Shown: one piece after another, positions 12,915 to 56,456 of the stretch
Layout of the letters: every line of letters starts with the position of its first letter
How positions within the stretch are numbered: position 1 is the first letter of the stretch
Virus record (IMG/VR): IMGVR_UViG_3300029121_000001
DNA from: a virus
DNA: 64,000 nucleotides
Reading direction: 5' to 3' (one strand)
Translations under genes and position numbers: made by a program
Notes under the pieces: model-generated
The model's database searches: none
Told to the model about the DNA's origin: nothing
The model's input: the letters and a program-made list of their open reading frames with translations, nothing else

Positions 12915-13139
12915 TTAAATATATATTATATTAGCATAACTACTATAGTTTCTAAAATCGAACCCACTGCTCCAGTCAAATCCATATGTAGCATATACTT
13001 TACCGTTATATTGATATGCTGTAAAATATTCAGATTGTCCTGGACTATCTAATAAATCACATCCTATCATTGTGCCATTTAATGGATATCCACTAGTAGT
13101 AATATAAATATTATTAAGCTTTTTTATAGAAGCGTCAGA
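12915..13139 (-). CDS. startless cassette a (74 aa), SDAS...IIYI family
   Basis: Opens at TCT GAC GCT TCT directly after an in-frame TAA. No start codon, no RBS. SDASIKKLNNIYITTSGYPLNGTMIGCDLLDSPGQSEYFTAYQYNGKVYATYGFDWSSGFDFRNYSSYANIIYI. Paralogue of cassette j. Confidence 0.6.
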   Translation of the reverse strand, partial: SDASIKKLNNIYITTSGYPLNGTMIGCDLLDSPGQSEYFTAYQYNGKVYATYGFDWSSGFDFRNYSSYANIIYI

Positions 13140-13156
13140 TTATAAAAAAAATAAAA

Positions 13157-13177
13157 GGTGGGCGAATGAAACCCACC
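13157..13177 (-). terminator. intrinsic terminator after 13229..13555, abutting the cassette motif
   Basis: GGTGGG/CCCACC hairpin followed by TTTTATTTTTTTT on the minus strand, then TATAATCTGACGCTTCT. Confidence 0.7.
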
Positions 13178-13228
13178 CCTTCCGTAAAATTCTGATTGAT
13201 ACAGGATCTGTCAATTGTATACTAACGT

Positions 13229-13555
13229 TTATCCGATTATATCCATGATAAACTTAATACATTCTTTGGCCATATCACAGGCAACTCCAACATACTTTCG
13301 ATCCTCCTTATTGACAATGTACACATGTACATTGTCAATTTTGGAGACATCATTATTGAATAAATCAATAATAATTTCTTCCATTTTTGAACTGTTAAAT
13401 TCCATTTTGATCCCATCAGACGATAATATTAAAGCATTACCATCATCGTTTTTACTGATGTATGCAATAAAATCACATATATCAGTACCAAAGTATTTGG
13501 TAAATAGTGCTTTGCATTTATCAGTGCTTAGCTTGAGACGTACATCTATCATCAT
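13229..13555 (-). CDS. hypothetical protein
   Basis: ORF with AAGGAGG RBS before ATGATG at 13555 (MMIDVRLK). The track start at 13588 is upstream of the RBS. Confidence 0.75.
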   Translation of the reverse strand: MMIDVRLKLSTDKCKALFTKYFGTDICDFIAYISKNDDGNALILSSDGIKMEFNSSKMEEIIIDLFNNDVSKIDNVHVYIVNKEDRKYVGVACDMAKECIKFIMDIIG

Positions 13556-13619
13556 AATAATTAACCTCCTTTTATGATGATGAAACAATCCGAAATAGAG
13601 AATTCTTATATTCCTATCT

Positions 13620-13635
13620 CAATTTTATATTATGT
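13620..13635 (-). promoter_or_regulatory. promoter-like motif ACATAATATAAAATTG
   Basis: Degenerate copy of AGATATTATAAWWWTG, 65 nt upstream of the 13555 start. Confidence 0.35.
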
Positions 13636-13661
13636 AAGTGAAAATATACACTTTAAATAAA

Positions 13662-13922
13662 TCTGACGCTTCTATTAAGATAAAGAATAAAATTGTAAAT
13701 GTAAAAGATTATTATACATTTAGAGATGGTATCATATTAAATACCTGCCTTATGACGTATTCTAATGTAAGTTATTCATATAGGCCATTTATTCAAGTGC
13801 GTTACGATAATAATGATAATAGTTATAGTATTAGAATACAATGTATCATTAATAGTGATATTGATGGATATAATTTCGATAATAGTGTGAATGATGGAAG
13901 TATTATAATATATTATATATAA
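13662..13922 (+). CDS. startless cassette b (86 aa), the only motif copy on the plus strand
   Basis: AAATAAATCTGACGCTTCTATTAAG. SDASIKIKNKIVNVKDYYTF...SIIIYYI. The frame is open from 13638 (GTG), but there is no RBS. Confidence 0.55.
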   Translation, partial: SDASIKIKNKIVNVKDYYTFRDGIILNTCLMTYSNVSYSYRPFIQVRYDNNDNSYSIRIQCIINSDIDGYNFDNSVNDGSIIIYYI

Positions 13923-13926
13923 AATA

Positions 13927-13955
13927 ATCCAGTAGGAATTAAATTCCTACTGGAT
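13927..13955. terminator. bidirectional hairpin between convergent cassette b and the radical SAM gene
   Basis: atccagtaggaatt/aattcctactggat. Confidence 0.6.
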
Positions 13956-13962
13956 ATTATTG

Positions 13963-15297
13963 TTACTTATTAAATGCTTCTTTTTCTAGATTAAATAAAT
14001 AATCAGCTTCTTCTTTACCAAGAATATCTACTACTTCATTATATGGAAGATTGATCTTTGTTGGATCTTTATCTCCTAACTCAATACATCTTCTATTATA
14101 ATAGTAATAGTATCCTAATACTCTACCTTTATGAGCATAACAAATTCCAGTATATCTTTTATTCGCAGTTCCATATAATTCATAATTATATGCAGAACAC
14201 CAACCACAATTCAAAGATACAGGACAATCAATACACTTCTTTGGAGATTGAGAAGTGAATGTTATAGAATCAAGTTCTTTCTTGATATTCTTACTACTCT
14301 CTGATTTAAATAATCCATTAAAGCAATCACCAATAATAATTTTATTAGCTTTCTCTTTTCCAATAGATATAGGAGCATATCTAATACAAGGATAAGCATT
14401 GCCATCTGGGTCAAATGCCATCATATGACCGGTACCACCACAGAAATTCTTATCATCATGCTGTAGATTGACTGCTCCTCCGAGAGTAGAATCAAGTAAA
14501 GCTACAATAGCATTACTTTTATTTTGAATTAAATAATTAGAAAGCTTCTTTAATTCAAAATAAATATTCTTTGCATCACTAATAGAATATTCTGGTTCAT
14601 ATGCAAAATTGCAATTAACAAGGTTACATCCATTCTCAATCATCATCTTAATAGATGGAGTAATATATTGAACAGAATTGGGAACAAATGTCATTTTACT
14701 ATTCGCTGAACCATAAATATTTTTTACATCAAGAAATGCTTTATATGCTTTTTCAAATGATCCTTCTCCATATCTATCGATTCTATATTTATCATGAAGA
14801 TCTTGAATACCATCAATAGATACAGTAATTGATAAGAATTCTTTATACTTATGCACAAAATGTTGTACATCTTTATCAAACCAATTCTGACCATTTGTAG
14901 CAAAAGCAATTCTAGTAAATTGAGCAATAGGAATATTCCTTAAATAGCATTGATGAAAGAAATAATCACATATTTCTTCTACTAATTTTGCTTCTAGCAT
15001 TGGTTCTCCACCAATAAAATCAAGAATAATACTTTTTGTATTCTTATTGATAAAATCAGTGTCATTATCCTCATACATATCTAGAATTCTATCAATACAT
15101 TTTTTACCAATATAGAGAGACATAGATCCATCAGACTTATGATGTTCATAACAATAAGAGCAACGAAGATTACACTGATTTGTTACCTGAAATGTAATTT
15201 CTCGTGCAGCCTCCATTTTTCGATCTTCTCCATTTGAAAAAATCTCTCGAATATACTCACCATAATTGTCTCTAGATCGACTATTAATACTTACCAT
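13963..15297 (-). CDS. radical SAM enzyme with C-terminal SPASM-like Cys cluster (anaerobic sulfatase maturase / peptide maturase family)
   Basis: CNLRCSYCYEHH (CxxxCxxC), GGEP motif. C-terminal CIDCPVSLNCGWCSAYNY...GICYAHKG. Confidence 0.85.
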   Translation of the reverse strand: MVSINSRSRDNYGEYIREIFSNGEDRKMEAAREITFQVTNQCNLRCSYCYEHHKSDGSMSLYIGKKCIDRILDMYEDNDTDFINKNTKSIILDFIGGEPMLEAKLVEEICDYFFHQCYLRNIPIAQFTRIAFATNGQNWFDKDVQHFVHKYKEFLSITVSIDGIQDLHDKYRIDRYGEGSFEKAYKAFLDVKNIYGSANSKMTFVPNSVQYITPSIKMMIENGCNLVNCNFAYEPEYSISDAKNIYFELKKLSNYLIQNKSNAIVALLDSTLGGAVNLQHDDKNFCGGTGHMMAFDPDGNAYPCIRYAPISIGKEKANKIIIGDCFNGLFKSESSKNIKKELDSITFTSQSPKKCIDCPVSLNCGWCSAYNYELYGTANKRYTGICYAHKGRVLGYYYYYNRRCIELGDKDPTKINLPYNEVVDILGKEEADYLFNLEKEAFNK

Positions 15298-15584
15298 GTT
15301 AATTCTACCTCATTATTATCGAAATCAAATTCATATTCTATAGAAGAAGGAACTTTTCCGATTATAGAGGCAATAAGAGTATTTACGTTTACCATAAATT
15401 CAATATAGGCATTCTGATAATCTACTCTATATTTATCTATCATAGCTGCAGTTTCTGCGGATTTATTTTCTGCAAATTCACGAGCCAATACACAAATGAA
15501 ATTTTTATAACTCATCATAATATAATGAAGTCTTTCAATTGTAATAGATTGCTCTTTATCAATATTAACTTTCTTTTTCTGCAT
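15291..15584 (-). CDS. hypothetical protein
   Basis: ORF overlapping both neighbours. The ATG at 15584 (MQKKKVN) follows GGAG; the track start at 15605 is less likely. Confidence 0.65.
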   Translation of the reverse strand: MQKKKVNIDKEQSITIERLHYIMMSYKNFICVLAREFAENKSAETAAMIDKYRVDYQNAYIEFMVNVNTLIASIIGKVPSSIEYEFDFDNNEVELTW

Positions 15585-16185
15585 TATTATTAGTCTCCAT
15601 TTCAATCAGATGATAAGCTGTAGTTTCAGTTTTAAGAGATTCATATCGATCTCTTATATAAAAAATTTTATCGAGAATCCTGATAAGAAGACTATTGTCT
15701 CTATCCTTTTCTTCAATCATCTTATTAGCAATTGAACGTAGCACAGTATAAAGACAATATACATGAAAATTAGAATTTGTACTCATACTTAGAAAAATGT
15801 TTATTTTATTATTATCTATAGGAAATCCATCAATAACAGTAAAATTGCATTTATCTGAATATGTCTTTAAAGTAATTGTATATATAGTAAGAAGTATTTC
15901 TTCATCTGTAGCATCATAATTACATGCTGAAAAAATACTAGATACTACAGAACTTACATATTTTGCATAATCATGTATATTAATAGAAAAGTCAGAATGA
16001 CAAAGTGTGCAAAAATAATCTATATAACAAAATTCGGGTTCTTTAGATATATTATCAAAAATAATAAGCATATCTTTAGTAATTGGATCCATTGAAAGAA
16101 ATCTATTAAGTAAGAAATTCTTTTTAAAGAATTTATCATTTTTAGAATAATTTATAGTAAAGGTATCATTAGTAATATCTATCAT
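15565..16185 (-). CDS. hypothetical protein
   Basis: 206-aa ORF, GGAGG RBS. Confidence 0.8.
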   Translation of the reverse strand: MIDITNDTFTINYSKNDKFFKKNFLLNRFLSMDPITKDMLIIFDNISKEPEFCYIDYFCTLCHSDFSINIHDYAKYVSSVVSSIFSACNYDATDEEILLTIYTITLKTYSDKCNFTVIDGFPIDNNKINIFLSMSTNSNFHVYCLYTVLRSIANKMIEEKDRDNSLLIRILDKIFYIRDRYESLKTETTAYHLIEMETNNNAEKES

Positions 16186-16198
16186 AAAATATCCTCCA

Positions 16199-16756
16199 TT
16201 ACATTAACCAAAATCCACATCCAGAGCAAGATTCACAAGTATGAGCACATCCAGATCCACACCCTTCGCATCCATCACACCCTCCACTACATCCTCCACT
16301 ACATCCAGAGCAAGTAGTGTTACATCCTCCACTACAATTTGTTTTACAATTTCCAGAACATCCTTTACAACCACCATAGCAACCAGTATTGCACAATCCA
16401 CTACAAGATGCTTTACATCCAGTAGAGGTCGCATCTTTAGCAATTTTAGAAAGATTGCCTACTGATGTAGTAGCATTTGTAAGTACACTAGCAATAACAT
16501 TAGCATTTTTATCAGGAGTTGTATTACTACCAGTAACAGCATCCAAAGGTTTAGTAATCTTTTGAATGTGTTCTAAATTGATTTTAATATCTTTACCTTG
16601 AGCTGGTGTAGTAGTATAATCATATGAAGTTCCATTATAGGATTTCATACTTCCAACACTTGCTGAATTTGATCTACGTGTAATCTCCGATTTTACGAGT
16701 TTCTTAAGTGCAGTAAAATCACTAGCATTAATTAATTCGCTTTTTTTAATACCCAT
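16199..16756 (-). CDS. protein with an extremely Cys/Gly/Ser-rich C-terminal tail
   Basis: 185 aa. The last 72 residues contain 19 Cys at 3-4 residue spacing (CKASCSGLCNTGCYGGCKGCSGNC...CESCSGCGFWLM). Confidence 0.8.
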   Translation of the reverse strand: MGIKKSELINASDFTALKKLVKSEITRRSNSASVGSMKSYNGTSYDYTTTPAQGKDIKINLEHIQKITKPLDAVTGSNTTPDKNANVIASVLTNATTSVGNLSKIAKDATSTGCKASCSGLCNTGCYGGCKGCSGNCKTNCSGGCNTTCSGCSGGCSGGCDGCEGCGSGCAHTCESCSGCGFWLM

Positions 16757-16760
16757 AATA

Positions 16761-17303
16761 TTACCCTCTTACACGAATGCGTACTCGACGAATATCTGTA
16801 TTAAGATCTTCATCGACTGCATATCCTACAATTTGTGTATTTTCTACTATTTCATCATGAAGTTTTGCTTTACCAACTCCAGAAATATCAGAAACTATAA
16901 TAGTATCTCCACGATGAATTTCTCCAATACACTTACAGTATACACGGCCACATAGTGATACAGGAATATATTTCTTAATATTCTTAGAAATATAATCATC
17001 ACTATTATCATATTGATCACCACCAATAATCATAGCATATTCATCAGAATGAACACCTGCAATAATACTACTTTTATTAGTAGCTTTAATATAGCTTTCT
17101 TTATCAGAAGATAGATCAAGAGCAATAATATCTCCAGGTTCTGTATATTCTCCTCTAGGGAAGAATTCTGCATAGTCATTATATACAGCACCATAACATT
17201 TACTAAATTTTGCTACACCATTTTTATCTACATAATAACTAGCACTACCAAAATTAATAGTACCCGTCATTGTTCCACCAGACTTAAGAAGATAAGCGTC
17301 AAA
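16761..17303 (-). CDS. startless cassette c: tail-fibre-like C-terminal module with Peptidase_G2/IMC-like domain
   Basis: Opens TAA TAA TTT GAC GCT TAT, giving FDAYLLKSGGTMTGTINF (classic fibre motif). DYAEFF...IAGVHS...PVSLCGRVYCKC resembles the phi29 gp12-type autochaperone. An internal ATG at 17270 has no RBS. Confidence 0.6.
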   Translation of the reverse strand, partial: FDAYLLKSGGTMTGTINFGSASYYVDKNGVAKFSKCYGAVYNDYAEFFPRGEYTEPGDIIALDLSSDKESYIKATNKSSIIAGVHSDEYAMIIGGDQYDNSDDYISKNIKKYIPVSLCGRVYCKCIGEIHRGDTIIVSDISGVGKAKLHDEIVENTQIVGYAVDEDLNTDIRRVRIRVRG

Positions 17304-17340
17304 TTATTATAATTTTAATATATTTCAAAAAAAAGAAAAA

Positions 17341-17364
17341 CCAATAGAGAGAAATCTCTATTGG
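17341..17364 (-). terminator. intrinsic terminator between cassettes d and c
   Basis: ccaatagaga/tctctattgg hairpin followed by TTTTTCTTTTTTTT on the minus strand. Confidence 0.7.
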
Positions 17365-17371
17365 TTTATAA

Positions 17372-17587
17372 TTAAATATAATACACTATACAAGATATAT
17401 TATCATCCGTCCAAGTTGATGTATTACTACCTAAAGTAAAATGAATACAATATATCCAAGATGATTTAGATATAAATGCAATATAATTATAATAGTTTTC
17501 TTTAATTGCAACAGATATTGGAATTCCTAATGTAAACTTTTGTCCTGATTTAAAATCTATACTCTTAATTTTAGTAGAAGCGTCAGA
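17372..17587 (-). CDS. startless cassette d (71 aa)
   Basis: TGA TCT GAC GCT TCT. SDASTKIKSIDFKSGQKFTLGIPISVAIKENYYNYIAFISKSSWIYCIHFTLGSNTSTWTDDNISCIVYYI. No in-frame start near the 5' end, no RBS. Confidence 0.6.
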   Translation of the reverse strand, partial: SDASTKIKSIDFKSGQKFTLGIPISVAIKENYYNYIAFISKSSWIYCIHFTLGSNTSTWTDDNISCIVYYI

Positions 17588-17606
17588 TCATTCAAAAAAA
17601 AAATAA

Positions 17607-17632
17607 AAGCATGAAATTAGATTTCATGCTTT
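17607..17632 (-). terminator. intrinsic terminator after 17647..18390, abutting the cassette motif
   Basis: agcatgaaat/atttcatgct hairpin followed by TTTTATTTTTTTTTT. Confidence 0.7.
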
Positions 17633-17646
17633 TATTTTATGATATC

Positions 17647-18390
17647 TCAAATATGTTCTTTTATAATATCAATAATTGCCTTAATCAATCTTCTTTCATC
17701 GTGCTTTTCAATATTACTATTACTGCAAAAATCATTGAATTTTGTTCTAAAGTTTTCAATATCAGAAGAAGTCATATAAATATGAGATAATTGTGTCATA
17801 CTTAAAAGATTATAGTCTGGTTTTCCGAATAGATCATTATAAAGTTTGTCAACCAAGTATTCTTTTCTTTTTTGATCAATACATCTTATCCATACATCTC
17901 CAAGAGTGATAGAATCACTATTATTGACATTGATATATAATTCATATATATTTTCTAAAAGTCTAATGGTAATGACTACTTTATTATCAGAATCTAATTT
18001 TTTACTAATAAATTCCAAAGATTCAATCATTCTATTTGTTGTATTAATATTATGACAATTAATAAAATATCTTATCATATCATCATTATTTAATTTAATT
18101 TTACGCATCCTTCTACCAGATAATACTTTGTTACTGTTACAAAATGCAATAGATTTGAACTGCTCATATTTATCTTTAGCACATTCATAACTTTCAAAAT
18201 TATATCTACTAATTTTAACCTTTTTACCTCCATTAATATCGAATATAATATTTCTAATTGTAATAACATATGATAGATAATCATTATAACTATAACTTTC
18301 AATCATAACACATGTTTTACTATCAGAAGAATATCCCAATAAACTAACCATAATATCATCTTTTATAGTAGTAATAAATCTTTCTCTCAT
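17647..18390 (-). CDS. hypothetical protein
   Basis: 247-aa ORF, AAGGAG RBS. Confidence 0.85.
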   Translation of the reverse strand: MRERFITTIKDDIMVSLLGYSSDSKTCVMIESYSYNDYLSYVITIRNIIFDINGGKKVKISRYNFESYECAKDKYEQFKSIAFCNSNKVLSGRRMRKIKLNNDDMIRYFINCHNINTTNRMIESLEFISKKLDSDNKVVITIRLLENIYELYINVNNSDSITLGDVWIRCIDQKRKEYLVDKLYNDLFGKPDYNLLSMTQLSHIYMTSSDIENFRTKFNDFCSNSNIEKHDERRLIKAIIDIIKEHI

Positions 18391-18447
18391 TGTAATTCTC
18401 CTTTATTTTAGATAATTTAAAATAGAGTACATTATTCTCTATTTCTT

Positions 18448-18463
18448 CAATTTTATAATATCT
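18448..18463 (-). promoter_or_regulatory. promoter-like motif AGATATTATAAAATTG
   Basis: 58 nt upstream of the 18390 start; identical to the copy at 33937-33952. Confidence 0.5.
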
Positions 18464-18541
18464 AATTCAAAATCATTATATATATAACGATATTTCACAT
18501 CATAATAATTCTCAAAACTTTTCATAAAGGAGACAATTATT

Positions 18542-19045
18542 ATGAATTTTAATATGAAACAACTTCATACTATCTATGAATGTGATACCAATGATCAGAC
18601 TGGAGCAAATCTAGATAATACTCTTTCTTCTAATAATCTTCTAGATATCTTTGATAATATTTGTCCTATTACTGGTGATATCTATAAGACCATGAAGAAT
18701 GCTGCTGCAGATCCTAAGAATCTAAAGGTTACTGCTGCTAAGTCTGGAGATGGAGAGAAAGCAAGTCTTTTCATTGAAGCTGTAGAGTTTATGACTTATG
18801 TAGAAGCTTCTGGTAAGACTATTGGTGAAGCAGCAGAAGATATTGTAGATACTTATCAATCTGATATCCCTGGTATGGCAAGTGATGATATCCATGTTGT
18901 ATTTCCCAGTGATGCTCTTAATAAAAATAATCTCGGCAGTCAGAATTATGGCAGAGATGTTAAGAACGATTGGGCAATGCAACTTATGACTGGAATTCGT
19001 AGATATGGCCTAAAGGCAAATATTGGAGTTGACGAAAGTAAATAA
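18542..19045 (+). CDS. hypothetical protein
   Basis: 167-aa ORF, AAGGAG RBS. Confidence 0.8.
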   Translation: MNFNMKQLHTIYECDTNDQTGANLDNTLSSNNLLDIFDNICPITGDIYKTMKNAAADPKNLKVTAAKSGDGEKASLFIEAVEFMTYVEASGKTIGEAAEDIVDTYQSDIPGMASDDIHVVFPSDALNKNNLGSQNYGRDVKNDWAMQLMTGIRRYGLKANIGVDESK

Positions 19046-19100
19046 GTATTTATAAATTCTCAATATAGTATATAGTAAAACATATTCGAATTAAAATAAT

Positions 19101-19124
19101 CCACTAGAGATTCTTCTCTAGTGG
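19101..19124. terminator. bidirectional terminator
   Basis: ccactagaga/tctctagtgg hairpin flanked by an A-run and a T-run, between convergent units. Confidence 0.65.
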
Positions 19125-19131
19125 ATTTTAT

Positions 19132-19371
19132 TTATATATAATAAATTATTGCTGTACCTGATACACAGTTATCAACATCATGTGAATTATATCCAGTATT
19201 TGCACATATATAATATAAATTTTCAGTATAATATTTATTATTCATTGTTATACTACACACAGGATAATTAGTACCATTATATATTAATACAGCAGATATT
19301 GGCGTTCCTGGTACAGAAAAATAACTTGACACTTTTACTGTTATATTTTTAATCTTAGTAGAAGCGTCAGA
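19132..19371 (-). CDS. startless cassette e (79 aa)
   Basis: TGA TAA TCT GAC GCT TCT. SDASTKIKNITVKVSSYFSVPGTPISAVLIYNG...GTAIIYYI. The track GTG start at 19332 has no RBS and lies inside the conserved region. Confidence 0.6.
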   Translation of the reverse strand, partial: SDASTKIKNITVKVSSYFSVPGTPISAVLIYNGTNYPVCSITMNNKYYTENLYYICANTGYNSHDVDNCVSGTAIIYYI

Positions 19372-19390
19372 TTATCAAAAAAAAAAATAA

Positions 19391-19416
19391 ACCAGTAGAG
19401 ATTTCTCTCTACTGGT
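19391..19416 (-). terminator. intrinsic terminator after 19425..20084, abutting the cassette motif
   Basis: accagtagag/ctctactggt hairpin followed by a 13-nt T-rich run on the minus strand. Confidence 0.75.
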
Positions 19417-19424
19417 TCTTTATA

Positions 19425-20084
19425 TTATGAATTTTCTCTTAAGAATCTTTGCTCATCTTCATATTCTTTTCTAATTCTAAATATCATTACATTAGGATCA
19501 TTTGCGTATTTCTTATATATTGGACTTACAAAAGATACTGTTTGATTATCTATATTCCCTTCATAGAATTCATCATCGTAATTATATTGTTTTATATATC
19601 CTTTACTTATAGGAATGCTTCTTACATGAGCATCTCCTAATTGTACTAAACATCTTCCTTTTCCTGAATATTGTTGAATAGTATTTATCATTATAGTTTC
19701 TCTTGTTTTAAACTCTTCTTCTCTAGACTTAAATTTCTTAGTATCTCCTCTATCTATTCCAATTAAAGGAATATTATATTTATATGCTAATTCATATAGC
19801 CAATAATTATATTGATAATCACATGGACCCCTCCCGCCATTAGTAGCATGGTCCATCTTATATTTGATATCTTCTCTTGTAAGAGCTTTATCAGCATAAG
19901 CAAATTCAGCTAAAAGATAATCATATTTACTTTGAGATAAAAGTTTATCATAAATACCAATCATTGAATTATTATGATATTCACCTACAATAACCATTTT
20001 ATATTTATCTAGTTTAGCAGATTTAATATCTTGATGCTTTGAATATGGAGTAACTTTTTCATTTATAATATTAAATACTTTCAT
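19425..20084 (-). CDS. hypothetical protein (weak ChaN/Tiki-like resemblance)
   Basis: 219-aa ORF. VIVGEYHNN resembles the LGExH motif; low confidence. Confidence 0.7.
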   Translation of the reverse strand: MKVFNIINEKVTPYSKHQDIKSAKLDKYKMVIVGEYHNNSMIGIYDKLLSQSKYDYLLAEFAYADKALTREDIKYKMDHATNGGRGPCDYQYNYWLYELAYKYNIPLIGIDRGDTKKFKSREEEFKTRETIMINTIQQYSGKGRCLVQLGDAHVRSIPISKGYIKQYNYDDEFYEGNIDNQTVSFVSPIYKKYANDPNVMIFRIRKEYEDEQRFLRENS

Positions 20085-20124
20085 AATATTATCTTCTTTC
20101 TTTTTATTATTACTAATTTGTATT

Positions 20125-20140
20125 CAATATTATAATATCT
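20125..20140 (-). promoter_or_regulatory. promoter-like motif AGATATTATAATATTG
   Basis: 41 nt upstream of the 20084 start. Confidence 0.45.
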
Positions 20141-20158
20141 TTTTATAAATTAATTGGT

Positions 20159-20287
20159 ATGGCTAGTGTTGTAACTGGTAATATTCCATCATTAAATATT
20201 GGAAATAAATATTATGACATAAAAGTTATATTAGATTATACATACAGTAAAGATTTATCTGTGATCGTATCGGTTATATATTATTAA
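20159..20287 (+). pseudogene. possible remnant of a cassette-family C-terminus on the plus strand
   Basis: 42-aa ORF ending ...SVIVSVIYY-stop, like the YYI-stop family end. No 5' motif, no RBS. Confidence 0.25.
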
Positions 20288-20293
20288 AATAAA

Positions 20294-20321
20294 ACCCAGA
20301 GGGTCTTAAGACCCTCTGGGT
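20294..20321. terminator. hairpin terminator
   Basis: acccagagggtc/gaccctctgggt. Confidence 0.6.
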
Positions 20322-20346
20322 AATTTTATATAGTAATTATTATAAA

Positions 20347-21405
20347 TTAATAGACGGGGAAGAAGCGATCATCAGAGAAGATAGCAGAATTATGCTGACC
20401 CTGAAGAGGCTTATCGTCATTATGCTTCATAATTTCATCTCTGGTGAATCTGGCGTCTCCATCAGTGAAACGCTGCTTAATATAATCATATGTATACTTA
20501 TCAGTACCCTTAGCCCAAGCATGCATTGCCTTATCAAGATCCTTATCACCATCATATGTATCCTTGGCGATAGACTTATTCTTCAGGGCAAACTTCAGAA
20601 TCTCAACATACTGACCAACATAAGAATGATACCACTTAATAAGTTCAGAAGATGCAAGAGAGATATATCTGCATGTAGCATTAACCGCCTTCAACTTATC
20701 ACTCTTATCCTCATCATTTTCTTCTCTAATATCCTTCTTAGCATCATTAAGAGTCTTTAGTGCTGTAGCTTTAGATTTACGAATTTCATTAAAAATAGTT
20801 CTATCAGTATTAAAAACAATATTCTCTGCGTGTGTTAGAATACCCTTATTAATTTCTACATTCTTCTTGGATGTCACAACTGCTTTTTTGATTTTCATCT
20901 TAACATCAGAAGCTTCAGCATTAGCATTAGAGTTGTTAGCATCAATAGCAAGGAAATTAGCAACGTTTTTGTTAAGATCTTCTTTCTCGACCCAATTAGT
21001 AATTTCCTTATTATACTTTGCAGTGTTACTCCAATTAGCAATGATATTATCAAGCTTCTTCTTGTTAATACCAGCCTTATTGAAGAACTCACGAACATCT
21101 TCAACACGATCCTGAACCCAGGTAATCAGCTTGTCCCACATATCGGAGACAGTCTTGGTAACCTTATCAATAGCACCCTTGATCTTTTCCTTCAGCTGAT
21201 AGTTAGCCTCGTTAACATACTGAATTTCAGTGCCGTTCTCCAGCAGATAAGCATGCTCATTCAGCAGAATGCTCATGTTCATCTCATTCAGTGCATCAGC
21301 AGTATATGCCTGAGCCATGCCACAAGCCTCTGCCAGGCTCATGCCAGGAAACGGATTAGGGTTAGTATAGCCAGAGCTCTGACCACTAATAACATTAACA
21401 ATCAT
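20347..21405 (-). CDS. hypothetical protein (GC-richer codons, possibly a virion or scaffold protein)
   Basis: 352-aa ORF, AAGGAG RBS. Confidence 0.85.
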   Translation of the reverse strand: MIVNVISGQSSGYTNPNPFPGMSLAEACGMAQAYTADALNEMNMSILLNEHAYLLENGTEIQYVNEANYQLKEKIKGAIDKVTKTVSDMWDKLITWVQDRVEDVREFFNKAGINKKKLDNIIANWSNTAKYNKEITNWVEKEDLNKNVANFLAIDANNSNANAEASDVKMKIKKAVVTSKKNVEINKGILTHAENIVFNTDRTIFNEIRKSKATALKTLNDAKKDIREENDEDKSDKLKAVNATCRYISLASSELIKWYHSYVGQYVEILKFALKNKSIAKDTYDGDKDLDKAMHAWAKGTDKYTYDYIKQRFTDGDARFTRDEIMKHNDDKPLQGQHNSAIFSDDRFFPVY

Positions 21406-21447
21406 GATTTAATCTCCTTTGTTTAAAATTACGATCGTAAGGAAAAA

Positions 21448-21996
21448 TTAATATAGATCGTCCCAACCTGTTGTGGACTCGTCAATACTGTCATCCTCAG
21501 CCAATTCAGCAGGGCTTGCTCCATCGACATACGATCCATCATCGAAGCTGGCTTCAAAGTTGTCATCTTCGTTGTTGAATTGAGGAATTGTATTGGGATC
21601 AACAGGGATCTCTTCAGATTCATTCACTAGACTTGCGTCCTTTTCAAATCCAGAGAAATCTTCATGAAAAGAATCATGGAACGATAAATCTACATCAGTG
21701 TCTTTTCCATCACTAGCATCTGCAAACTGATCAGCAGCAGCGATACCAGCGTCAAGACCATACTTAGCAGGGCGACCGAGCTTGTCGACTCCAAAGCCAT
21801 CAAAACCAGAATCTTCAGTGGATTCTTCAAATACATCTGCACTCTCATCTGCAAATGAATTCTGCTTATGCTTAATGTCAGAAGCAGTATCTCCGAATCC
21901 ACTATTATCATCTTGTTCCTGGCTATCATCCCAGGTATTGTGAGGCTCATCTTTATGCCAAGTATCTTCATGAAGAAGACTATTAAAAATACTCAT
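21448..21996 (-). CDS. highly acidic hypothetical protein
   Basis: 182-aa D/E-rich ORF, AAGGAG RBS. Confidence 0.8.
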   Translation of the reverse strand: MSIFNSLLHEDTWHKDEPHNTWDDSQEQDDNSGFGDTASDIKHKQNSFADESADVFEESTEDSGFDGFGVDKLGRPAKYGLDAGIAAADQFADASDGKDTDVDLSFHDSFHEDFSGFEKDASLVNESEEIPVDPNTIPQFNNEDDNFEASFDDGSYVDGASPAELAEDDSIDESTTGWDDLY

Positions 21997-48837: not shown

Positions 48838-48939
48838 AATCGGTCATCTCTCTTTCTTTTTAATTTTATAGAATTCTTCTTATACTCCAAGATTCAAGAC
48901 TCGAACTTGATAAATGTCCAATACAATCTTAGTTAGGGA

Positions 48940-49740
48940 GATATGAGTTTGCTAGTGGACCGTAGCCCACAAATAACCCTCAGAAACCCATATCAGAAAA
49001 CCGCATCTTAATTTCGGAAATATAGAAGGATGCTTTATCTATACCCCTAGAAGGTCAACTGTCTTTTTCTCATACCTACAGCTCATCTGGATCGATGGTT
49101 TCCTACACGAAATCAAAGTCCTTAAATTTCGGATAATGTGCTAGATGATTTACACAAAACCTACTATTGTTCTTTATATCGTGGCCAGCTCAATAAACTT
49201 ACGGGTGAAGTTTTGCATAAACTAAACGCGCAAGTAGCCTTCCTTAGAACAATCAAGAGTATCTAATGCATATCAATATTCGGCAAACTACCTAAACCAT
49301 AGCTGGTATGGAGTTATTCGTACCAAATATTATTATTCCCCGCCTCGGTAGATACTTTCAAGACTTGACACGCTTTCCCGGTGCCCTTTATGTGGGGCAT
49401 ATAGTAGACCACTATAATTAATAGCCTAAAAAGTTGATCAGACTATCTAGAAAATTAATTAAAGTTTTTATGGCGATACGCGTATCTATTCAATTACGAA
49501 TCCCAATTTGGGATCCTAATAATTGTCACTACGGTCCCCCAGATCCATCTATATGCGTATAAGCGTTAGGATAAAGGTAGTAGACATTATCCCTGCAGAA
49601 TCTTACTGCACCATCATTAGATGTAATCTAATGAATCGAACCTCGCTTTGTAAACCTAAGAAGAAAGAAAAACTTAGATTTACACTTCTTTTGAGCTGTC
49701 CGTCCCTCGATACACAAAAGAAAAAATAGGAATTAAATAC
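48940..49740. ncRNA. candidate large structured non-coding RNA (about 800 nt ORF-free, GC-elevated region next to the tRNAs); strand unresolved
   Basis: No credible ORF in six frames in otherwise gene-dense DNA. Composition is clearly richer in G+C than the flanks (similar to the verified intron). Local helices such as ggatcccaa/ttgggattc. Adjacent to two tRNA genes. Confidence 0.35.
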
Positions 49741-49762
49741 AAGCCGAATATTTAATTCCTAA

Positions 49763-49839
49763 TGGTGGGCCATGTAGGACTCGAACCTACGACCATCCGG
49801 TTATGAGCCAGAAGCTCTGACCAACTAAGCTAATAGCCC
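49763..49839 (-). tRNA. tRNA-Met: tRNA with CAU anticodon (Met, or Ile2 if lysidine-modified), encoded CCA
   Basis: GGGCTATTAGCTTAGTTGGTCAGAGCTTCTGGCTCATAACCGGATGGTCGTAGGTTCGAGTCCTACATGGCCCACCA folds as a cloverleaf with GGTTCGAGTCC T-arm. Confidence 0.9.
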
Positions 49840-49871: not shown

Positions 49872-49954
49872 TGGTGCAGGAAAAGGGACTTGAACCCTCA
49901 CTCCGAAGAACTAGATCCTAAGTCTAGCGTGTCTGCCATTCCACCATTCCTGCA
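49872..49954 (-). tRNA. tRNA-Leu: tRNA-Leu (UAG anticodon), class II with long variable arm, encoded CCA
   Basis: TGCAGGAATGGTGGAATGGCAGACACGCTAGACTTAGGATCTAGTTCTTCGGAGTGAGGGTTCAAGTCCCTTTTCCTGCACCA; anticodon loop CTTAGGA. Confidence 0.88.
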
Positions 49955-50458: not shown

Positions 50459-50474
50459 TTTATTTGATAATATA

Positions 50475-50711
50475 TTAAATATAGAATATTCTTACATTAT
50501 ATTTTGCTAAAATAATATCATGTGCGTTTAAGTCAATATTAAATGCAGCGATTCCATATTGTGAATTACTAATGTAATATATGGATACATATGGAAGTCC
50601 AGATATAGAATTCACATCTTTACATACTGCAGATATTACAGTTCCATTTTTAAAAGTTTTTAGTTCTGGGATATACATATCTATATATTTAATTTTAGTA
50701 GAAGCGTCAGA
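50475..50711 (-). CDS. startless cassette g (78 aa)
   Basis: TAA AAT AAA TCT GAC GCT TCT. SDASTKIKYIDMYIPELKTFKNGTVISAVCKD...NVRIFYI. The internal ATG at 50678 has no RBS. Confidence 0.6.
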   Translation of the reverse strand, partial: SDASTKIKYIDMYIPELKTFKNGTVISAVCKDVNSISGLPYVSIYYISNSQYGIAAFNIDLNAHDIILAKYNVRIFYI

Positions 50712-50720
50712 TTTATTTTA

Positions 50721-51638
50721 TCTTATCATTATAAGAGGGAAAACTCCTTTACTACCATAATACACAGGTGCATTAGCAACTTTTACTTCAGATCCAGATG
50801 CAATATACCATGGCATATCATAACTGTGTCCTCCTTGAGGATAGCTATTGTTTGATAATCCACGTAAGAAGCCATCTCCAAATTACCAAGTAGTAAAATT
50901 AAAATATGGTAATTTATAATTAGCTTCACCATCATCATATTTGTTGTTATTAGAAGCAAATTTACCAGTAATTTGTCCAGCACTCATTAATGTACAATAT
51001 GCATTTGTCCAAGCATAACCTGTATTAGTAAGATTGCCATTGACATATTCAGTTTTATTAGATAATAATACCTTTCTTTTAACTAAATGATTATAAAAAA
51101 TAGATTTTTTCATCAATATATCAGCTGTAGTTGAATTCAAATCTTTATGCACACCTGTACTTACATATCCAGTATCTTCAAATATCATGCCATTTGATGA
51201 TTTATAAAGAGGTTCTGTAGGAATCATAAATATACCATATCCATTATCATATGGTGTTCCATCTGAAGCAGTTTTATTATGTTCACAATCAAAACCTACA
51301 ATAACCCATTTCTTATTGTAAGTACCATCTTTAATAGTTATTGTAGAACCAATAGAAGCACCATAATAACCTGTAAAATTACTACATCTAATAAGAAAAT
51401 CATCTAGATCAATAGTAGTTTCATCATGATTAATGGATAATGTGCCAAGGTCTTGAACTTTATATCTAGTATTAGGAGTAGAAGTATCAATAGGAAGATT
51501 TTTTACATCTCCTAGTATTTTAATAATAATAGATTGTATAGTTGTATTTTTACTAAATTTACTTTTAGCAGGAATTCCTCCAACTGTGTATCTTGTTACA
51601 ATATCATTCTCTAATATTAAATTAGTAGAAGCGTCAGA
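50721..51638 (-). CDS. startless cassette h: long receptor-binding-like module (251 + 54 codons) interrupted by an in-frame TAA; paralogue of cassette i
   Basis: TAA TAA TCT GAC GCT TCT. SDASTNLILENDIVTRYTVGGIPAKSKF...ANYKLPYFNFTTW-TAA-FGDGFLRGLSNN...GVFPLIMIR. The first in-frame ATG is 136 codons in. Confidence 0.6.
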
Positions 51639-51660
51639 TTATTATAAAAAAAAAATAAAA

Positions 51661-51682
51661 GGGAGTAGATTTCTCCACTCCC
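51661..51682 (-). terminator. intrinsic terminator after 51691..52136, abutting the cassette motif
   Basis: gggagtag/ccactccc hairpin followed by TTTTATTTTTTTTT on the minus strand, then ATAATAATCTGACGC. Confidence 0.7.
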
Positions 51683-51690
51683 TTTTATAA

Positions 51691-52136: not shown

Positions 52137-52258
52137 AATAAAGTCCTCCTTATAGACTTCCAATATAATAAAATATTCTTCTAAGAAGGAATATATTTAT
52201 CCTTCTTATCACTTTTATACTATACAAGTGAAATATTTAAATTGTTAAAAAAATAAAC

Positions 52259-52280
52259 CAGTAGAGATTTCTCCCTACTG
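52259..52280 (-). terminator. intrinsic terminator after the RNAP beta-prime gene
   Basis: cagtagag/ccctactg hairpin followed by TTTATTTTTTT on the minus strand. Confidence 0.7.
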
Positions 52281-52338
52281 ATATTTTTAATTATACATAC
52301 ACTACTATTATCTCATTAGTATTATTGCGCAATTAATA

Positions 52339-54554: not shown

Positions 54555-54647
54555 TGAATAAAAATCCTCCTTAGTGTATTTATACTTTTGGAGATAATAT
54601 CTTACAAAAATTACGGTGGTCTAATCATAAAATCATAACCTTTCTAT

Positions 54648-54663
54648 CAATATTATAATATAT
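54648..54663 (-). promoter_or_regulatory. promoter-like motif ATATATTATAATATTG
   Basis: 94 nt upstream of the 54554 start. Confidence 0.4.
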
Positions 54664-54677
54664 CCTTAAAAGATTTT

Positions 54678-55241
54678 TTAAGAATTATCTGTAAATTTAT
54701 TCAGTTTCATTATAGTATTATAATCAGGATCATCTAATCTAGGCTGTTTAGAATCGTCTTTTAGCAGGTATACTTTTCCTTTAAACGGTTTATATTTAAT
54801 ACCAACAGCATCAAGCATTCTAGTAGCTTCTCTAAAATCTGCTGTATCAGGATATTTATTAATGCTATAATAAATATTCTTTACTCCTACTTGAATAAGA
54901 GCCTTAGTGCAATTATGACAAGGAAACATGGTTACATAAAGAGTAGATCCTCTAAAAGCAGAAAGATCTCCACGGAAGTTGAGAATAGCATTTTCTTCTG
55001 CATGTACTACATAAGGATATTTAGTATCTTCTTCATTTTCTGCTTCCCTTGCCCAAGGAAATTCATCATCAGAAATTCCATTAGGAAATCCATTATAACC
55101 AATGCTAAGGATACGATCATTAGAAGATACAAATACTGCACCAACTTGAGAATTAGGATCTTTAGATCGCATTGCTGCCATTCGAGCAATGCCCATATAC
55201 ATATCTTCTTTAGAGATATAATTAGTGCGTTTATCTGACAT
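54678..55241 (-). CDS. dCMP deaminase
   Basis: VVHAEENAI and PCHNCTKALIQVGVKNIYY zinc-binding motifs; AAGGAGG RBS. Confidence 0.9.
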   Translation of the reverse strand: MSDKRTNYISKEDMYMGIARMAAMRSKDPNSQVGAVFVSSNDRILSIGYNGFPNGISDDEFPWAREAENEEDTKYPYVVHAEENAILNFRGDLSAFRGSTLYVTMFPCHNCTKALIQVGVKNIYYSINKYPDTADFREATRMLDAVGIKYKPFKGKVYLLKDDSKQPRLDDPDYNTIMKLNKFTDNS

Positions 55242-55297
55242 GAGATAGCCTCCTTTAAATTTAGTAATTAATTGTCAAATGAAAAATTAAAAAATAA

Positions 55298-55330
55298 TAC
55301 TAGGTAAGGAATCTACTTCCTTACCTAGTA
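55298..55330. terminator. bidirectional hairpin terminator after cassette i
   Basis: tactaggtaaggaa/ttccttacctagta. Confidence 0.65.
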
Positions 55331-55360
55331 TTTTAAAATTTCATAAAGTGGTTAATTATA

Positions 55361-56227
55361 TTACCTAATATAAATAAGCGGACGAAGACCGAGCCTGCTA
55401 TAACAGAGGTTCCAATCTGGTTTACCAGAATTTGAAATACCATAGACATAGTTATTGCCATAACTTTTACTGCATATTCCACGCAACCAAGCCCAATTAT
55501 CAAAACTCCATGTTTCATAATTGAATAATGGTAGTTTATAATTAGCTTCTCCATCATCGAATTTATTACTAGTAGAAGCAAATGTGCCAGTTACTTGTCC
55601 TGTACTCATTAACGTGCAATATGCATTAGTCCATATATAACTATTAGCACAATAATTAGAATCTCTAGAAGTACTCAATAGAACATTACGTAGTACAAGA
55701 TGCTCACCAAGTACTCTCTTAAGGTTATCTGCAACTTCAGATAATATAGTCTTATTTATAGCAGATCCATTATATCCTTTTTCAGTAGAACTAGAATCCC
55801 ATACTACACTACCTAAACTCCTCCTAGGTATTAAACATATACCATATCCATTATCATTAGTATTTCCATCAGATGCTGTTTGATTGTGTTCCATATCGAA
55901 ACCAGCAATAATCCATTCTTTATTATATACATCATCTTTAATAGTAACATAACTACCAATAGTAGCACCGTAATAACCAGTATCATGGCAACATCTATAA
56001 AGAAAGTAATCTATATCACTAACATTAGACCAAGTCCCAAGATCCTGAGACTTATAACGTGTATTAGGTGTAGAAGTATCAACCGGAAGTTGTCCACTAT
56101 CTCCTAGCATTTTAATGATAATAGATTGTATAGTATCAGTTGCAGAGAATTGAGATCTTTTAGATATACCTCCAACAGTATATCTAGTATTATAAATTTG
56201 GACTCCAAGTTTATTAGAAGCGTCATT
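55361..56227 (-). CDS. startless cassette i: long receptor-binding-like module (288 aa), variant motif AATGACGCTTCT
   Basis: NDASNKLGVQIYNTRYTVGGISKRSQF...ANYKLPLFNYETWSFDNWAWLRGI...GLRPLIYIR. The track N-terminal extension to 56350 overlaps cassette j in another frame and has no RBS. Confidence 0.6.
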   Translation of the reverse strand, partial: NDASNKLGVQIYNTRYTVGGISKRSQFSATDTIQSIIIKMLGDSGQLPVDTSTPNTRYKSQDLGTWSNVSDIDYFLYRCCHDTGYYGATIGSYVTIKDDVYNKEWIIAGFDMEHNQTASDGNTNDNGYGICLIPRRSLGSVVWDSSSTEKGYNGSAINKTILSEVADNLKRVLGEHLVLRNVLLSTSRDSNYCANSYIWTNAYCTLMSTGQVTGTFASTSNKFDDGEANYKLPLFNYETWSFDNWAWLRGICSKSYGNNYVYGISNSGKPDWNLCYSRLGLRPLIYIR

Positions 56228-56231
56228 CTTA

Positions 56232-56456
56232 TTAAATATATATGATGTTTGCATGGCAGTCATCAGTATAAGATGACGCTGTACCATTACTCCAGTGTCT
56301 AATCCATCTATAATATAATTTTCCGTTATTTTGATAAATCCAATCAGCATCGTTTCTTACGTCATCTAATATATCAAATCCTATTATAGTACCATTTAAT
56401 GTATATCCAGATTTTGTGATATAAATATTATAAAGCTTCTTTATAGAAGCGTCAGA
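56232..56456 (-). CDS. startless cassette j (74 aa)
   Basis: TAA TAA TCT GAC GCT TCT. SDASIKKLYNIYITKSGYTLNGTIIGFDILDDVRNDADWIYQNNGKLYYRWIRHWSNGTASSYTDDCHANIIYI. Confidence 0.6.
   Translation of the reverse strand, partial: SDASIKKLYNIYITKSGYTLNGTIIGFDILDDVRNDADWIYQNNGKLYYRWIRHWSNGTASSYTDDCHANIIYI

Follow-up and report, generated by a model that had tools for sequence, protein, structure and literature searches.

The vsa locus of Mycoplasma pulmonis is among the closest described counterparts of the system reported here, a set of start-less open reading frames (ORFs) in a 64,000-nt stretch of viral DNA (IMG/VR record IMGVR_UViG_3300029121_000001; hereafter, the window). In vsa, the juxtaposed segment carries the promoter, the ribosome-binding site (RBS) and 714 nt from the start of the coding sequence; 5' ends are missing from the silent genes, and a tyrosine (Xer-like) recombinase gene adjoins the locus (PMC2268961). 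This HvsR system, like M. agalactiae vpma/Xer1 and M. bovis vsp, has one expression site for many silent genes, and in Mycoplasma DNA is inverted within one compact chromosomal locus. Shufflons (R64 Rci/sfx; tail fibres of BV01-like phages) connect start-less C-termini to a constant N-terminus at a site inside the ORF by means of a tyrosine recombinase; they are compact (1.7-2 kb), and their sites are inverted and give inversion only. The sites of the R64 shufflon are asymmetric, with one conserved arm. For the tail-fibre shufflon of BV01-like phages, a 10-bp directional motif was reported in 2026. In integrons, promoter-less cassettes stand in arrays, the tyrosine recombinase belongs to the Xer/IntI branch, intermediates are circular and cassette indels are site-bounded; the cassettes, which have own starts and attC hairpins, move to a fixed promoter/attI platform. 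In the switches of Mu (Gin/G), P1 (Cin/C) and p15B (Min), start-less fibre C-termini are swapped within a gene. Gin, Cin and Min are serine invertases that act on inverted 26-bp sites with an enhancer, with 2-6 alternatives in one invertible region. Finally, pilE/pilS and vlsE draw on silent start-less archives that are copied or joined into an expressed gene by RecA-type gene conversion between flanking homology blocks.

The window is part of a 258,080-bp contig from JGI metagenome 3300045988, and L093 (L numbers denote contigs or loci, P numbers proteins) is 100% identical to window positions 1-10948. It contains ten ORFs that open exactly at one short motif. We consider it rather likely that these are silent, start-less C-terminal modules of one fibre-like virion protein, which would be expressed by a mobile head module with the help of an Xer-like recombinase. 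In related phages we observed fusions of such cassettes to a constant head at the DNA level, precise presence or absence of the head module at the motif core, an end-to-end junction of the module and synteny of module and recombinase. The ten cassettes, named by the position of their first codon, and the terminators ahead of them are:

12915-13139, minus strand: predicted silent tip cassette 13139, 74 aa (SDASIKKL...ANIIYI), opening at TCTGACGCTTCT, 4 nt past a terminator T-run
13662-13922, plus strand: predicted silent tip cassette 13662, 86 aa (SDASIKIK...IIIYYI), the sole plus-strand copy, divergent from 13139
16761-17303, minus strand: predicted silent fibre C-terminal cassette 17303, 180 aa (FDAYLLKSGGTMTG...AVYNDYAEFF...), motif TTTGACGCTTAT, empty counterpart of a filled site in L134
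17372-17587, minus strand: predicted silent tip cassette 17587, 71 aa (SDASTKIKSIDF..TLGIPIS..CIVYYI), opening at the exact motif
19132-19371, minus strand: predicted silent tip cassette 19371, 79 aa, between two similar terminator hairpins, missing in the syntenic L134
50195-50458, minus strand: predicted silent tip cassette 50458, 87 aa (SDASQKNI...TLYYI), third in a tandem array
50475-50711, minus strand: predicted silent tip cassette 50711, 78 aa (SDASTKIKYIDMY...RIFYI), second in the tandem array
50718-51638, minus strand: predicted long silent cassette 51638, about 306 codons, array leader after a terminator, with an in-frame TAA at 50885-50883
55361-56227, minus strand: predicted long silent cassette 56227, 288 aa (NDASNKLGVQIYNTRYTVGG...), motif AATGACGCTTCT, orthologue head-fused in L064, L068-L072 and L085
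56232-56456, minus strand: predicted silent tip cassette 56456, 74 aa, without ATG, GTG or TTG, an extra unit compared with L030
13143-13181, minus strand: terminator hairpin and T-run directly upstream of cassette 13139
17600-17638, 19389-19418, 51655-51688 and 56468-56503, minus strand: equivalent terminators upstream of the other leading cassettes

Eight of the motif copies are exact (TCTGACGCTTCT; 13139, 17587, 19371, 50458, 50711, 51638 and 56456 on the minus strand, 13662 on the plus strand) and two, at 17303 and 56227 on the minus strand, are variants. At all ten, an ORF of 71-288 codons (251 for 51638, otherwise as in the list) opens exactly at xxTGACGCTTCT and lacks a usable start codon or RBS. 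In six of the ten copies the codon right before the motif is an in-frame stop, and in the other four a stop lies 2-43 codons upstream. Where an in-frame ATG, GTG or TTG is present in a cassette, the first one is codon 11-137; cassette 56456 has none, and the sole one in cassette 17587 is a GTG at codon 67 of 71. No Shine-Dalgarno (SD) sequence stands ahead of any motif copy, and most other window genes possess a GGAGG-type RBS. The DNA is AT-rich (GC 0.27-0.38). With up to two mismatches, the motif was matched 19 times in the window versus 3.8 +/- 2.1 times in shuffled sequences, and none of 100 shuffles reached 19. Nine of the ten copies share the minus strand, and the copies form five clusters across 43.5 kb; the window is devoid of a constant gene. 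Hairpin plus T-run terminators end 4-7 nt ahead of the five cluster-leading copies (13139, 17587, 19371, 51638 and 56456). Several cassettes also have their own terminator downstream, and the hairpin is missing at some array-internal junctions (50711 to 50458, 56456 to 56227). Near-identical hairpins occur as the families CCAnTAGAGAnnnnTCTCTAnTGG and GGAGTGnAG...CTnCACTCC, with family-sharing members at 19098-19127, 19389-19418, 17338-17367, 52257-52282, 51655-51688 and 56468-56503.

The seven small cassettes have the N-terminus xDAS(T/I/N)K and the C-terminus (I/V)YYI or IIYI and cluster as one family, 51638 and 56227 are paralogues, and cassette proteins are 20-60% identical to each other. 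The YLLKSGGTMTG plus AVYNDYAEFF features place cassette 17303 among fibre modules; PF11962 (Pfam Peptidase_G2 IMC) is present in its homologues, which occur on proteins with the fibre motifs YLPLSGGTLTG and SVGLGNVDNTAD. The 251-codon ORF of cassette 51638 spans 50883-51638 including its stop, at which the homologue in L053 has CAA (Gln). Past this TAA the frame runs for 54 more codons to 50718 and ends in ...FPLIMIR as in the homologues, so that 51638 looks like a silent cassette that is starting to decay. Two further cassettes (SDASIKRLDGIYI... and NDASTKIKIDD...) were seen at 15935-16435 of L093, about 5 kb left of window position 1; with these, the library counts at least 12 cassettes in 74 kb, spread over about 57 kb.

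Aligned candidate cassette sites show high information content along T-GACGCT-TCT-AnT-AA. The strictly invariant core is TGACGCT, after which TCT is usual and TAT, AGT, ACT or TGT rare (window and related contigs). The first codon varies: it is TCT at cluster-leading copies and AAT, TAT or TTT within arrays. In 25 confident window genes GAC makes up 9.7% of the Asp codons, and the motif Asp is GAC at 65 of 71 candidate cassette sites, the remaining sites being chance ORFs. Outside the motif, cassettes have a synonymous divergence (dS) of 0.08-0.8; long cassettes show a ratio of nonsynonymous to synonymous divergence (dN/dS) of 0.27-0.6, and small cassettes one of 0.3-1.6. Because GAC is rare elsewhere yet kept here, while synonymous sites around the motif have diverged, the motif must be under constraint as nucleic acid. 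The cassettes themselves are still protein-coding, since the small ones form one family with conserved ends and in view of dN/dS.

A preceding sequence-only reading of the window had described ten ORFs that open exactly at the motif without start or RBS, and had held them to be beyond chance; it had also seen the common C-terminal end of seven small cassettes, the kinship of the two long ones and one tail-fibre module. All ten ORFs were found again and these relationships agree with ours, as does the proposed nucleic-acid-level signal with the GAC counts. Its five terminators before leading copies are present, at a distance of 4-7 rather than 0-6 nt. The invariance that it ascribed to the whole motif holds for the core and its GAC but not for the first codon, and its length range of 71-288 codons for nine cassettes but not for 51638, really about 306 codons with one in-frame TAA.

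Motif-rich relatives comprise four IMG/VR contigs of 161-271 kb from the same sample as the window and many human-gut ENA and Logan contigs, in which cassettes form tandem arrays of up to six. In these related human-gut jumbo phages, a module of 0.83-1.03 kb is seated exactly at the motif before different cassettes. A conserved left end of 40 nt comes first, followed by a terminator, about 430-630 nt of leader, RBS and ATG, and finally the 136 codons of a constant head. The head ends in ...IPTSALIYSMNQTLTSL-N-D-A (...QTLTSL-N-D-A), with N-D-A-S read in frame across the join to the cassette. This head, at 81-98% identity, is fused at ...QTLTSL/NDA (slashes mark junctions) to at least eight unrelated cassette types, at 18 metagenome loci and in L059 and L064. 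A profile of the small cassettes had matched just 17 short proteins, with long fusions missed because of the word index; the head profile then gave the fusions, with matches to 128 proteins, mostly of 205-244 aa, the length expected of a head with a single small tip. Metagenome proteins include more than 100 distinct fusions of this kind; the junction peptide expected in virions is ...SMNQTLTSLNDAS(T/I/N)K.... The left junction always reads xxTGACGCT/ATTACGAAGTAG..., behind at least eight unrelated upstream flanks, and conservation of the left end extends over its first 40 nt also in modules whose remaining leader differs. The string ATTACGAAGTAGTCTGAGAAATC would mark a module in the 258-kb contig.

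In IMG/VR contig 139374, a single module is accompanied by at least 33 distinct cassettes, whose frames stay open for 70-307 codons. The locus of the module differs by genome and matches window clusters A (L075), B (L134), D (L059) and E (L064); in L064 and L068-L072 it stands ahead of the 56227 orthologue, a few kb from the recombinase gene. Cassette 13139 is 78% identical to the tip of head fusion P0022, and its orthologue (88% DNA identity) is head-fused at the syntenic L075 locus, beside the orthologue of the 824-aa gene at 10348-12822. Cassette 13662 is 46% identical to the P0020 tip and 65% to L017_5891, 50458 is 57% identical to the P0047 tip, 50711 is 76% identical to L001_1982, and 56456 is 64% identical to the tip of head fusion P0036. 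Cassettes of the 17303 type are head-fused in P0139 (89% identical to the window copy) and P0157, and 56227 is about 75% identical to the head-fused tips of L064/L070. Head, module arms, module leader and promoter-like repeat are all absent from the 64-kb window, and because the window holds no head, all ten of its cassettes are predicted to be silent.

Comparison of closely related genomes revealed empty and filled versions of the same sites. In L059 and L061, an insert of 944 bp interrupts the last cassette of a six-cassette array precisely at AATGACGCT/TCT; this site is empty in L058, L060, L040, L062 and L063, with flanks that are 98-99.7% identical. The empty sequence (L058) is AATGACGCT/TCTATAAAA, and the filled one (L059) is AATGACGCT/ATTACGAAGTAG...(module)...CTTCGCTAAATGACGCT/TCTATAAAA. 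The insert in L059 brings left end, terminator, a 527-nt leader, RBS, ATG and 136 codons, which gives a normal 208-aa head plus tip gene. This array is syntenic with the 51638/50711/50458 array of the window; its cassette content differs. The 259-kb ENA contig L134 is syntenic with window 10028-23802 at 86-97% identity and has 824 extra bp of module at the orthologue of 17303, where the flanking blocks overlap on window 17301-17295, that is, on TGACGCT. One cassette of the window (56456-56228), with a motif copy at either border, is missing from L030 (contig 126218). The differences observed between genomes are insertions or deletions with direct core repeats, to which circular or tandem junctions are added.

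Joined module ends are present in assemblies. L088 is a 1085-bp k141 contig with a terminal repeat of 141 nt and so represents a circle or tandem unit of 944 bp in which CTTCGCTAAATGACGCT/ATTACGAAGTAG occurs; L090 contains two 100% identical modules in tandem, joined at the core; and P0065 and P0078 consist of the head plus NDAITK and a stop, the product predicted from an end-to-end junction. The joined module ends read AACTTCGCTAAA-TGACGCT-ATTACGAAGTAG, two inverted arms around a 7-bp asymmetric centre. The score of these arms (TCAGACT..ACTTCG.TAA around the core) was reached by 18 of 2000 shuffles. The main head family and the two divergent loci, L083 and L090, all retain the arm ACTTCGYTAA, with the layout ACTTCG(C)TAA(A), TGACGCT, reverse complement of ACTTCG(-)TAA(T). 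The module junction thereby has the inverted arms and identical asymmetric centre of 6-8 bp of Xer/Cre-type sites; the central TGACGCT is identical in all cassettes, and the cassette half-site TCTAnTAA resembles the module arm ATTACGAA. The junction strings of the putative attP are CTTCGCTAAATGACGCTATTACGAAG and CTTCGCTAAATGACGCTATTACGAAGTAG, and at site 13139 the expected junctions are TTTTTTTTATAATCTGACGCT/ATTACGAAGTAG (attL) and CTTCGCTAAATGACGCT/TCTATAAAAAAGC (attR). Neither the attP junction in IMG/VR nor the head in GTDB genomes was found, and a degenerate left-end pattern returned from IMG/VR only chance matches and two modules already known.

Further features of the modules were noted. 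Main-family modules carry an inverted internal motif copy (TCTGACGCTACT or TCTGACGCTTCT, opposite strand) about 190 nt upstream of the head ATG (L059 11090-11110, L064 5842, L072 3842, L075 3847) and five GTGAAGn7TTAAGA repeats, and both elements are absent from the divergent L083 and L090 modules. The product predicted for an inversion at the internal copy (NDATTFNGL...) is absent among 120 head proteins. In L089 (ENA ERZ27271590 k95_34715), a head whose N-terminus and upstream region are those of a conventional paralogous fibre (MASVNKVKVETD...) ends at the motif and is followed directly by the module left end, which suggests that the module can sit behind another head or that heads themselves recombine. 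In the 250-kb phage L065 (IMGVR_UViG_3300021256_001754, 11700-12560), the last 10 nt of the head (AACTTCGCTA) plus the motif AATGACGCT stand before cassettes as AACTTCGCTAAATGACGCT, despite the absence of a head; this remnant looks like a relic of past joins, and the next cassette there uses GACGCA. Head-to-head motif pairs 24-25 nt apart, with cassettes on opposite strands, occur at about 6915 in L010, at about 4981 in L018 and at 6261/6279 in L134, and would be the only arrangements that allow shufflon-like inversions.

The candidate enzyme and its neighbour lie at the right side of the last cassette cluster:

57788-58762, minus strand: Xer-like tyrosine recombinase, 324 aa, candidate enzyme at the motif, with Pfam Phage_integrase (2e-40) and a SAM-like N-terminal domain
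56506-57711, minus strand: Cys-rich zinc-ribbon-like protein, 401 aa, between recombinase and cassettes, position conserved in L030, L031, L064, L067, L068 and L072

This recombinase is the sole one found among about 50 window ORFs scanned. Its best NCBIfam models are XerA (220 bits), XerC and XerD (190-197 bits), no Rci-specific model being among those compared; the integron-integrase models failed (TIGR02249, 102.7 bits versus a cut-off of 265; NF011946, 65.9 versus 435). Homologues are encoded 1-4 kb upstream of the head module in L064, L067, L068 and the distant L083, where the recombinase is 62% and the head 50% identical. Synteny of recombinase and module is thus retained across divergent lineages. 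The 401-aa protein, for which Pfam, PHROGs and NCBIfam gave no match, may be an accessory factor. The same scan of about 50 window ORFs found no resolvase/invertase domain, transposase or reverse transcriptase. Pairs of template and variable repeats as in a diversity-generating retroelement (DGR) were not present either; the cassettes are proteins of 20-60% identity.

Taken together, the ten ORFs would represent seven small tips with a beta-sandwich fold, two long modules and one Peptidase_G2/IMC-type module, without promoter or start, each of which would be expressed only when the head module lies immediately upstream in the DNA, joined in frame within the 7-bp core TGACGCT. Conservative site-specific recombination by the phage's Xer-like tyrosine recombinase would be the likeliest mechanism. 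Direct core repeats would flank the module, which would be excised as a small circle whose junction has inverted ACTTCGYTAA arms around the core, and the circle would re-integrate at the core of any other cassette, in that cassette's orientation. Such excision and re-integration would account for the dispersal of cassettes over the genome on both strands, for the lack of synonymous change in the motif and for cassettes that can do without a start. Catalysis by the recombinase, a circular intermediate, switching at a rate that suffices for host-range bet-hedging and the role of the cassette protein as a receptor-binding fibre are our inferences. More tentatively, it is possible to picture an expression site in the form of a mini-circle of about 0.9 kb, which the Xer-like recombinase hops among dozens of tips in the replicating 258-kb virulent jumbo phage, so that one burst yields phages with differing heritable tips. 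The promoter would then move and the cassettes stay, an inverse integron, which would be a form of host-range bet-hedging not described for viruses.

How does this compare with the known systems? As in vsa, one promoter, RBS and 136-codon head serve at least 33 start-less cassettes in a relative (139374), and the tyrosine recombinase gene lies beside the locus (57788-58762; L064, L067, L068, L083). Unlike in Mycoplasma, the carrier is a virus, the cassettes extend over at least 43 kb in mostly one orientation, and it is the position of a discrete module that differs, with direct core repeats and a circular or tandem junction, which suggests excision plus integration; inversion isomers were not found among 120 head proteins. 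In contrast to shufflons, with which start-less C-termini, constant N-terminus, site inside the ORF and class of recombinase are shared, nine of ten copies lie on one strand, in tandem arrays and spread genome-wide, the promoter-plus-head is itself portable, and the recombinase scores as Xer, not specifically as Rci. Cassette arrays without promoters, recombinase branch, circles and site-bounded indels are common to integrons and the present system, whereas here the cassettes are start-less, the core is a short double-stranded sequence inside an ORF and the promoter module seems to move to the cassettes. The swapping of start-less fibre C-termini within a gene is also found in the serine-invertase switches, but no serine recombinase is present among the window ORFs scanned and the orientation is mostly direct. 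Silent start-less archives are shared with pilE/pilS and vlsE; in contrast to these, homology at the join is 7-17 nt, units are gained and lost reciprocally and cores are duplicated. Memberships in the integron, serine-invertase, DGR and gene-conversion classes therefore fail on defining features. What appears to be new is the combination of a jumbo phage of virulent type, dozens of dispersed, mostly co-oriented cassettes, an apparently moving module and integration-type footprints, and literature searches gave no description of such a system.

The sequence-only reading had taken the cassettes for archived tips that are joined to a constant N-terminus outside the window, and had proposed to look for a motif copy inside a long ORF with start and RBS and for cassette gain or loss bounded by the motif. 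The in-frame fusions to the 136-aa head in relatives correspond to the former, and the pairs L058/L059, 17303/L134 and window/L030 to the latter. Its view that dispersed direct copies do not resemble an invertible switch has held, since the unit found at different sites is a promoter plus head module. Among its candidate mechanisms, site-specific recombination agrees with DNA-level units at the core, with catalysis by the recombinase as the inferred part. RNA-level joining is unneeded because the joins are already present in DNA assemblies, and gene conversion is unneeded because discrete whole units are present or absent, with only a repeat of 7-9 bp at their borders. Its suggestion of a possibly new mechanism stands in so far as we deal with a variant of tyrosine-recombinase expression-site switching, not with a new category.

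Several points weigh against the proposed head-module switching. The putative link between recombinase and motif is one of synteny. The window, 64 kb of a 258-kb contig, contains no head module, which makes expression of its ten copies a prediction, and contigs 126218 (L030) and 121810 show cassettes and no module in the scans made. Cassette sites have one conserved arm (TCTAnTAA, right side), the left being merely AT-rich. The circular contig L088 could be a collapsed tandem duplication, as in L090, and a DDE transposon would likewise leave terminal inverted repeats and a 7-bp duplication. The 19371 indel versus L134 is bounded by two similar terminator hairpins and not by the core; therefore, arrays are also remodelled by some other process, and hairpins might serve as patches for recombination by which cassettes are seeded or deleted. 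The tight spacing of cassettes after terminators is left unexplained by the model. Finally, head and small tips have no significant Pfam, PHROG, PDB or BFVD match, and the identification as a fibre relies on motifs, the gene position in phage Jekyll (see below) and the Pfam domain in homologues.

Part of these observations would suit a scenario without programmed switching, in which the motif is a linker for slow module exchange between co-infecting phages, by short-homology or illegitimate recombination, and the start-less copies are decaying leftovers. Every comparison is indeed one of assemblies from different samples and none was made within one clone, and leftovers would account for the nonsense codon in 51638, a frameshifted copy in L040, the hairpin-bounded 19371 indel and a dN/dS near 1 for some small cassettes. 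We regard this as unlikely, as at least 33 intact cassettes per genome keep 70-307 codons open in AT-rich DNA, and as the motif of 7-10 nt is invariant while adjacent synonymous sites have diverged (dS up to 0.8). Module boundaries are sharp and identical in at least eight contexts. Moreover, strains with flanks of 98-99.7% identity differ in module position, a circular or tandem junction with inverted arms exists, and the recombinase gene is kept beside the module in divergent lineages. Quite unlikely is a second scenario, in which the head module is a non-autonomous DDE or other transposon, TGACGCT its duplicated target and the circle a copy-out/paste-in intermediate, with Xer serving an unrelated task such as concatemer resolution. 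The module has imperfect inverted repeats of about 23 nt at its termini and the 7-bp direct repeat at both ends, and in the circular or tandem junction the ends are exactly 7 bp apart. Ends joined at a fixed short spacing are the typical geometry of insertion sequence circles. A transposase was found neither in the about 50 window ORFs scanned, many of which are without family match, nor beside the modules, and a single module per genome where this is testable (139374) speaks against replicative spread. A transposon also leaves unexplained the cassette-versus-cassette indel between window and L030, which is bounded by cores without inverted repeats, whereas the half-site TCTAnTAA fits the attB of a recombinase, and synteny of recombinase and module is kept at 50-62% protein identity.

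Joining at the RNA level (trans-splicing, ligation or template switching), with the motif as acceptor signal, would be in line with a motif that is conserved as nucleic acid and located at the exact 5' end of each frame. It is highly improbable given that head-cassette fusions occur in DNA assemblies from many samples, that the window contains no intron or ribozyme family (at the Rfam gathering threshold two tRNAs were the only matches) and that terminators 4-7 nt upstream leave no room for conserved intron domains. Scarcely more credible is independent translation of each cassette from a non-canonical start at the motif or close to it. Gene callers do call internal or fortuitous starts (P0138, 169 aa from codon 11 of 17303) and P0001-P0017 were called with junk N-terminal extensions; yet 56456 lacks any start-type codon, no SD precedes any copy while other genes have GGAGG, the head helix leads straight into the N-terminal strand of the tip in the structure model, and the same cassettes are found as in-frame head fusions. 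Some further candidates were dropped: stop-codon recoding, as cassette frames differ and TAA is a normal stop here; ribosomal bypass or reinitiation, as terminators and unrelated genes lie upstream; a split intein, as there is no IntC before the Ser; and a resume codon as in transfer-messenger RNA, as no tRNA-like domain is present.

The cassette product is likely a fibre tip. An AlphaFold2 (AF2) model of head plus tip, based on an alignment of 75 sequences, shows a low-confidence head with a helix (residues 121-137) that ends at the junction, and after the junction a beta-sandwich tip with a predicted local distance difference test score above 90; the N-terminal strand of the tip directly continues the head helix. 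Foldseek with this model gave no PDB or BFVD match at E <= 0.001, and its weak top BFVD matches, suggestive only, are fibre or adaptor proteins. Residues 12-80 of the head are 46% identical to a protein encoded between tail spike and holin of Roseburia phage Jekyll. Cassettes and head were without match in Pfam, PHROGs and NCBIfam, and so were the long and IMC-type cassettes in a PDB sequence search.

If the switching model is true, abundant human-gut jumbo phages possess a heritable and reversible library of at least 12-33 receptor-binding tips, from which a tiny promoter-plus-head module would choose, a new host-range hedge against surface-variable gut bacteria. Fibre genes of this kind would be missed or mis-annotated, because gene callers skip or truncate the cassettes. 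A module at varied sites within a population would assemble as a separate small circle, and each site would look empty; the expected junction sequences can be specified for all ten window sites and are checkable in existing reads. Potentially, the system might also provide tools, namely a compact recombinase/att pair with a 7-bp core and a natural scaffold, with its junction at a helix end, for tip swaps in engineered phages.

With regard to the phage itself, the split RNA polymerase beta' is 28-31% identical to that of Yersinia phage phiR1-37 and Bacillus phages AR9 and PBS1, and we therefore assign the virus to the jumbo phages. Megablast of 12-20 kb against GenBank phages gave no match. The host probably belongs to the Lachnospiraceae, because of similarity to Roseburia phages and strong SD usage. 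An 185-aa protein with a Cys-rich C-terminus (DGCEGCGSGCAHTCESCSGCG) is encoded at 16199-16756 (minus strand) and a radical SAM enzyme at 13963-15297 (minus strand), directly downstream of cassette 17303; the L134 orthologue of the 185-aa protein has a faint tSAM_targ_Cxxx repeat. Both may form a maturase-substrate pair, co-transcribed with a head at 17303. Just downstream of tRNA-Leu(tag) (49872-49953) and tRNA-Met (49763-49839), an ORF-free and GC-richer stretch of about 850 nt (48900-49760, minus strand) has a folding energy z of -2.5 and may be a new structured RNA; its sole Rfam match is a sub-threshold RAGATH-36 (49549-49613, 29.6 bits versus 70). A MazZ-like dATP/dGTP diphosphohydrolase (PF18909, 1e-26) and a dCMP deaminase are encoded at 34936-35361 and 54678-55241 (both minus strand), and the closest RNA polymerase relatives, phiR1-37, AR9 and PBS1, are dU-DNA phages; these are hints of non-canonical DNA bases. 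Finally, the window contains a 3164-aa ORF (38745-48239, minus strand) with an endolysin-like domain at residues 2821-2982 and a 1236-aa ORF (6192-9902, plus strand) with endonuclease, acetyltransferase and enoyl-CoA-hydratase-like regions.

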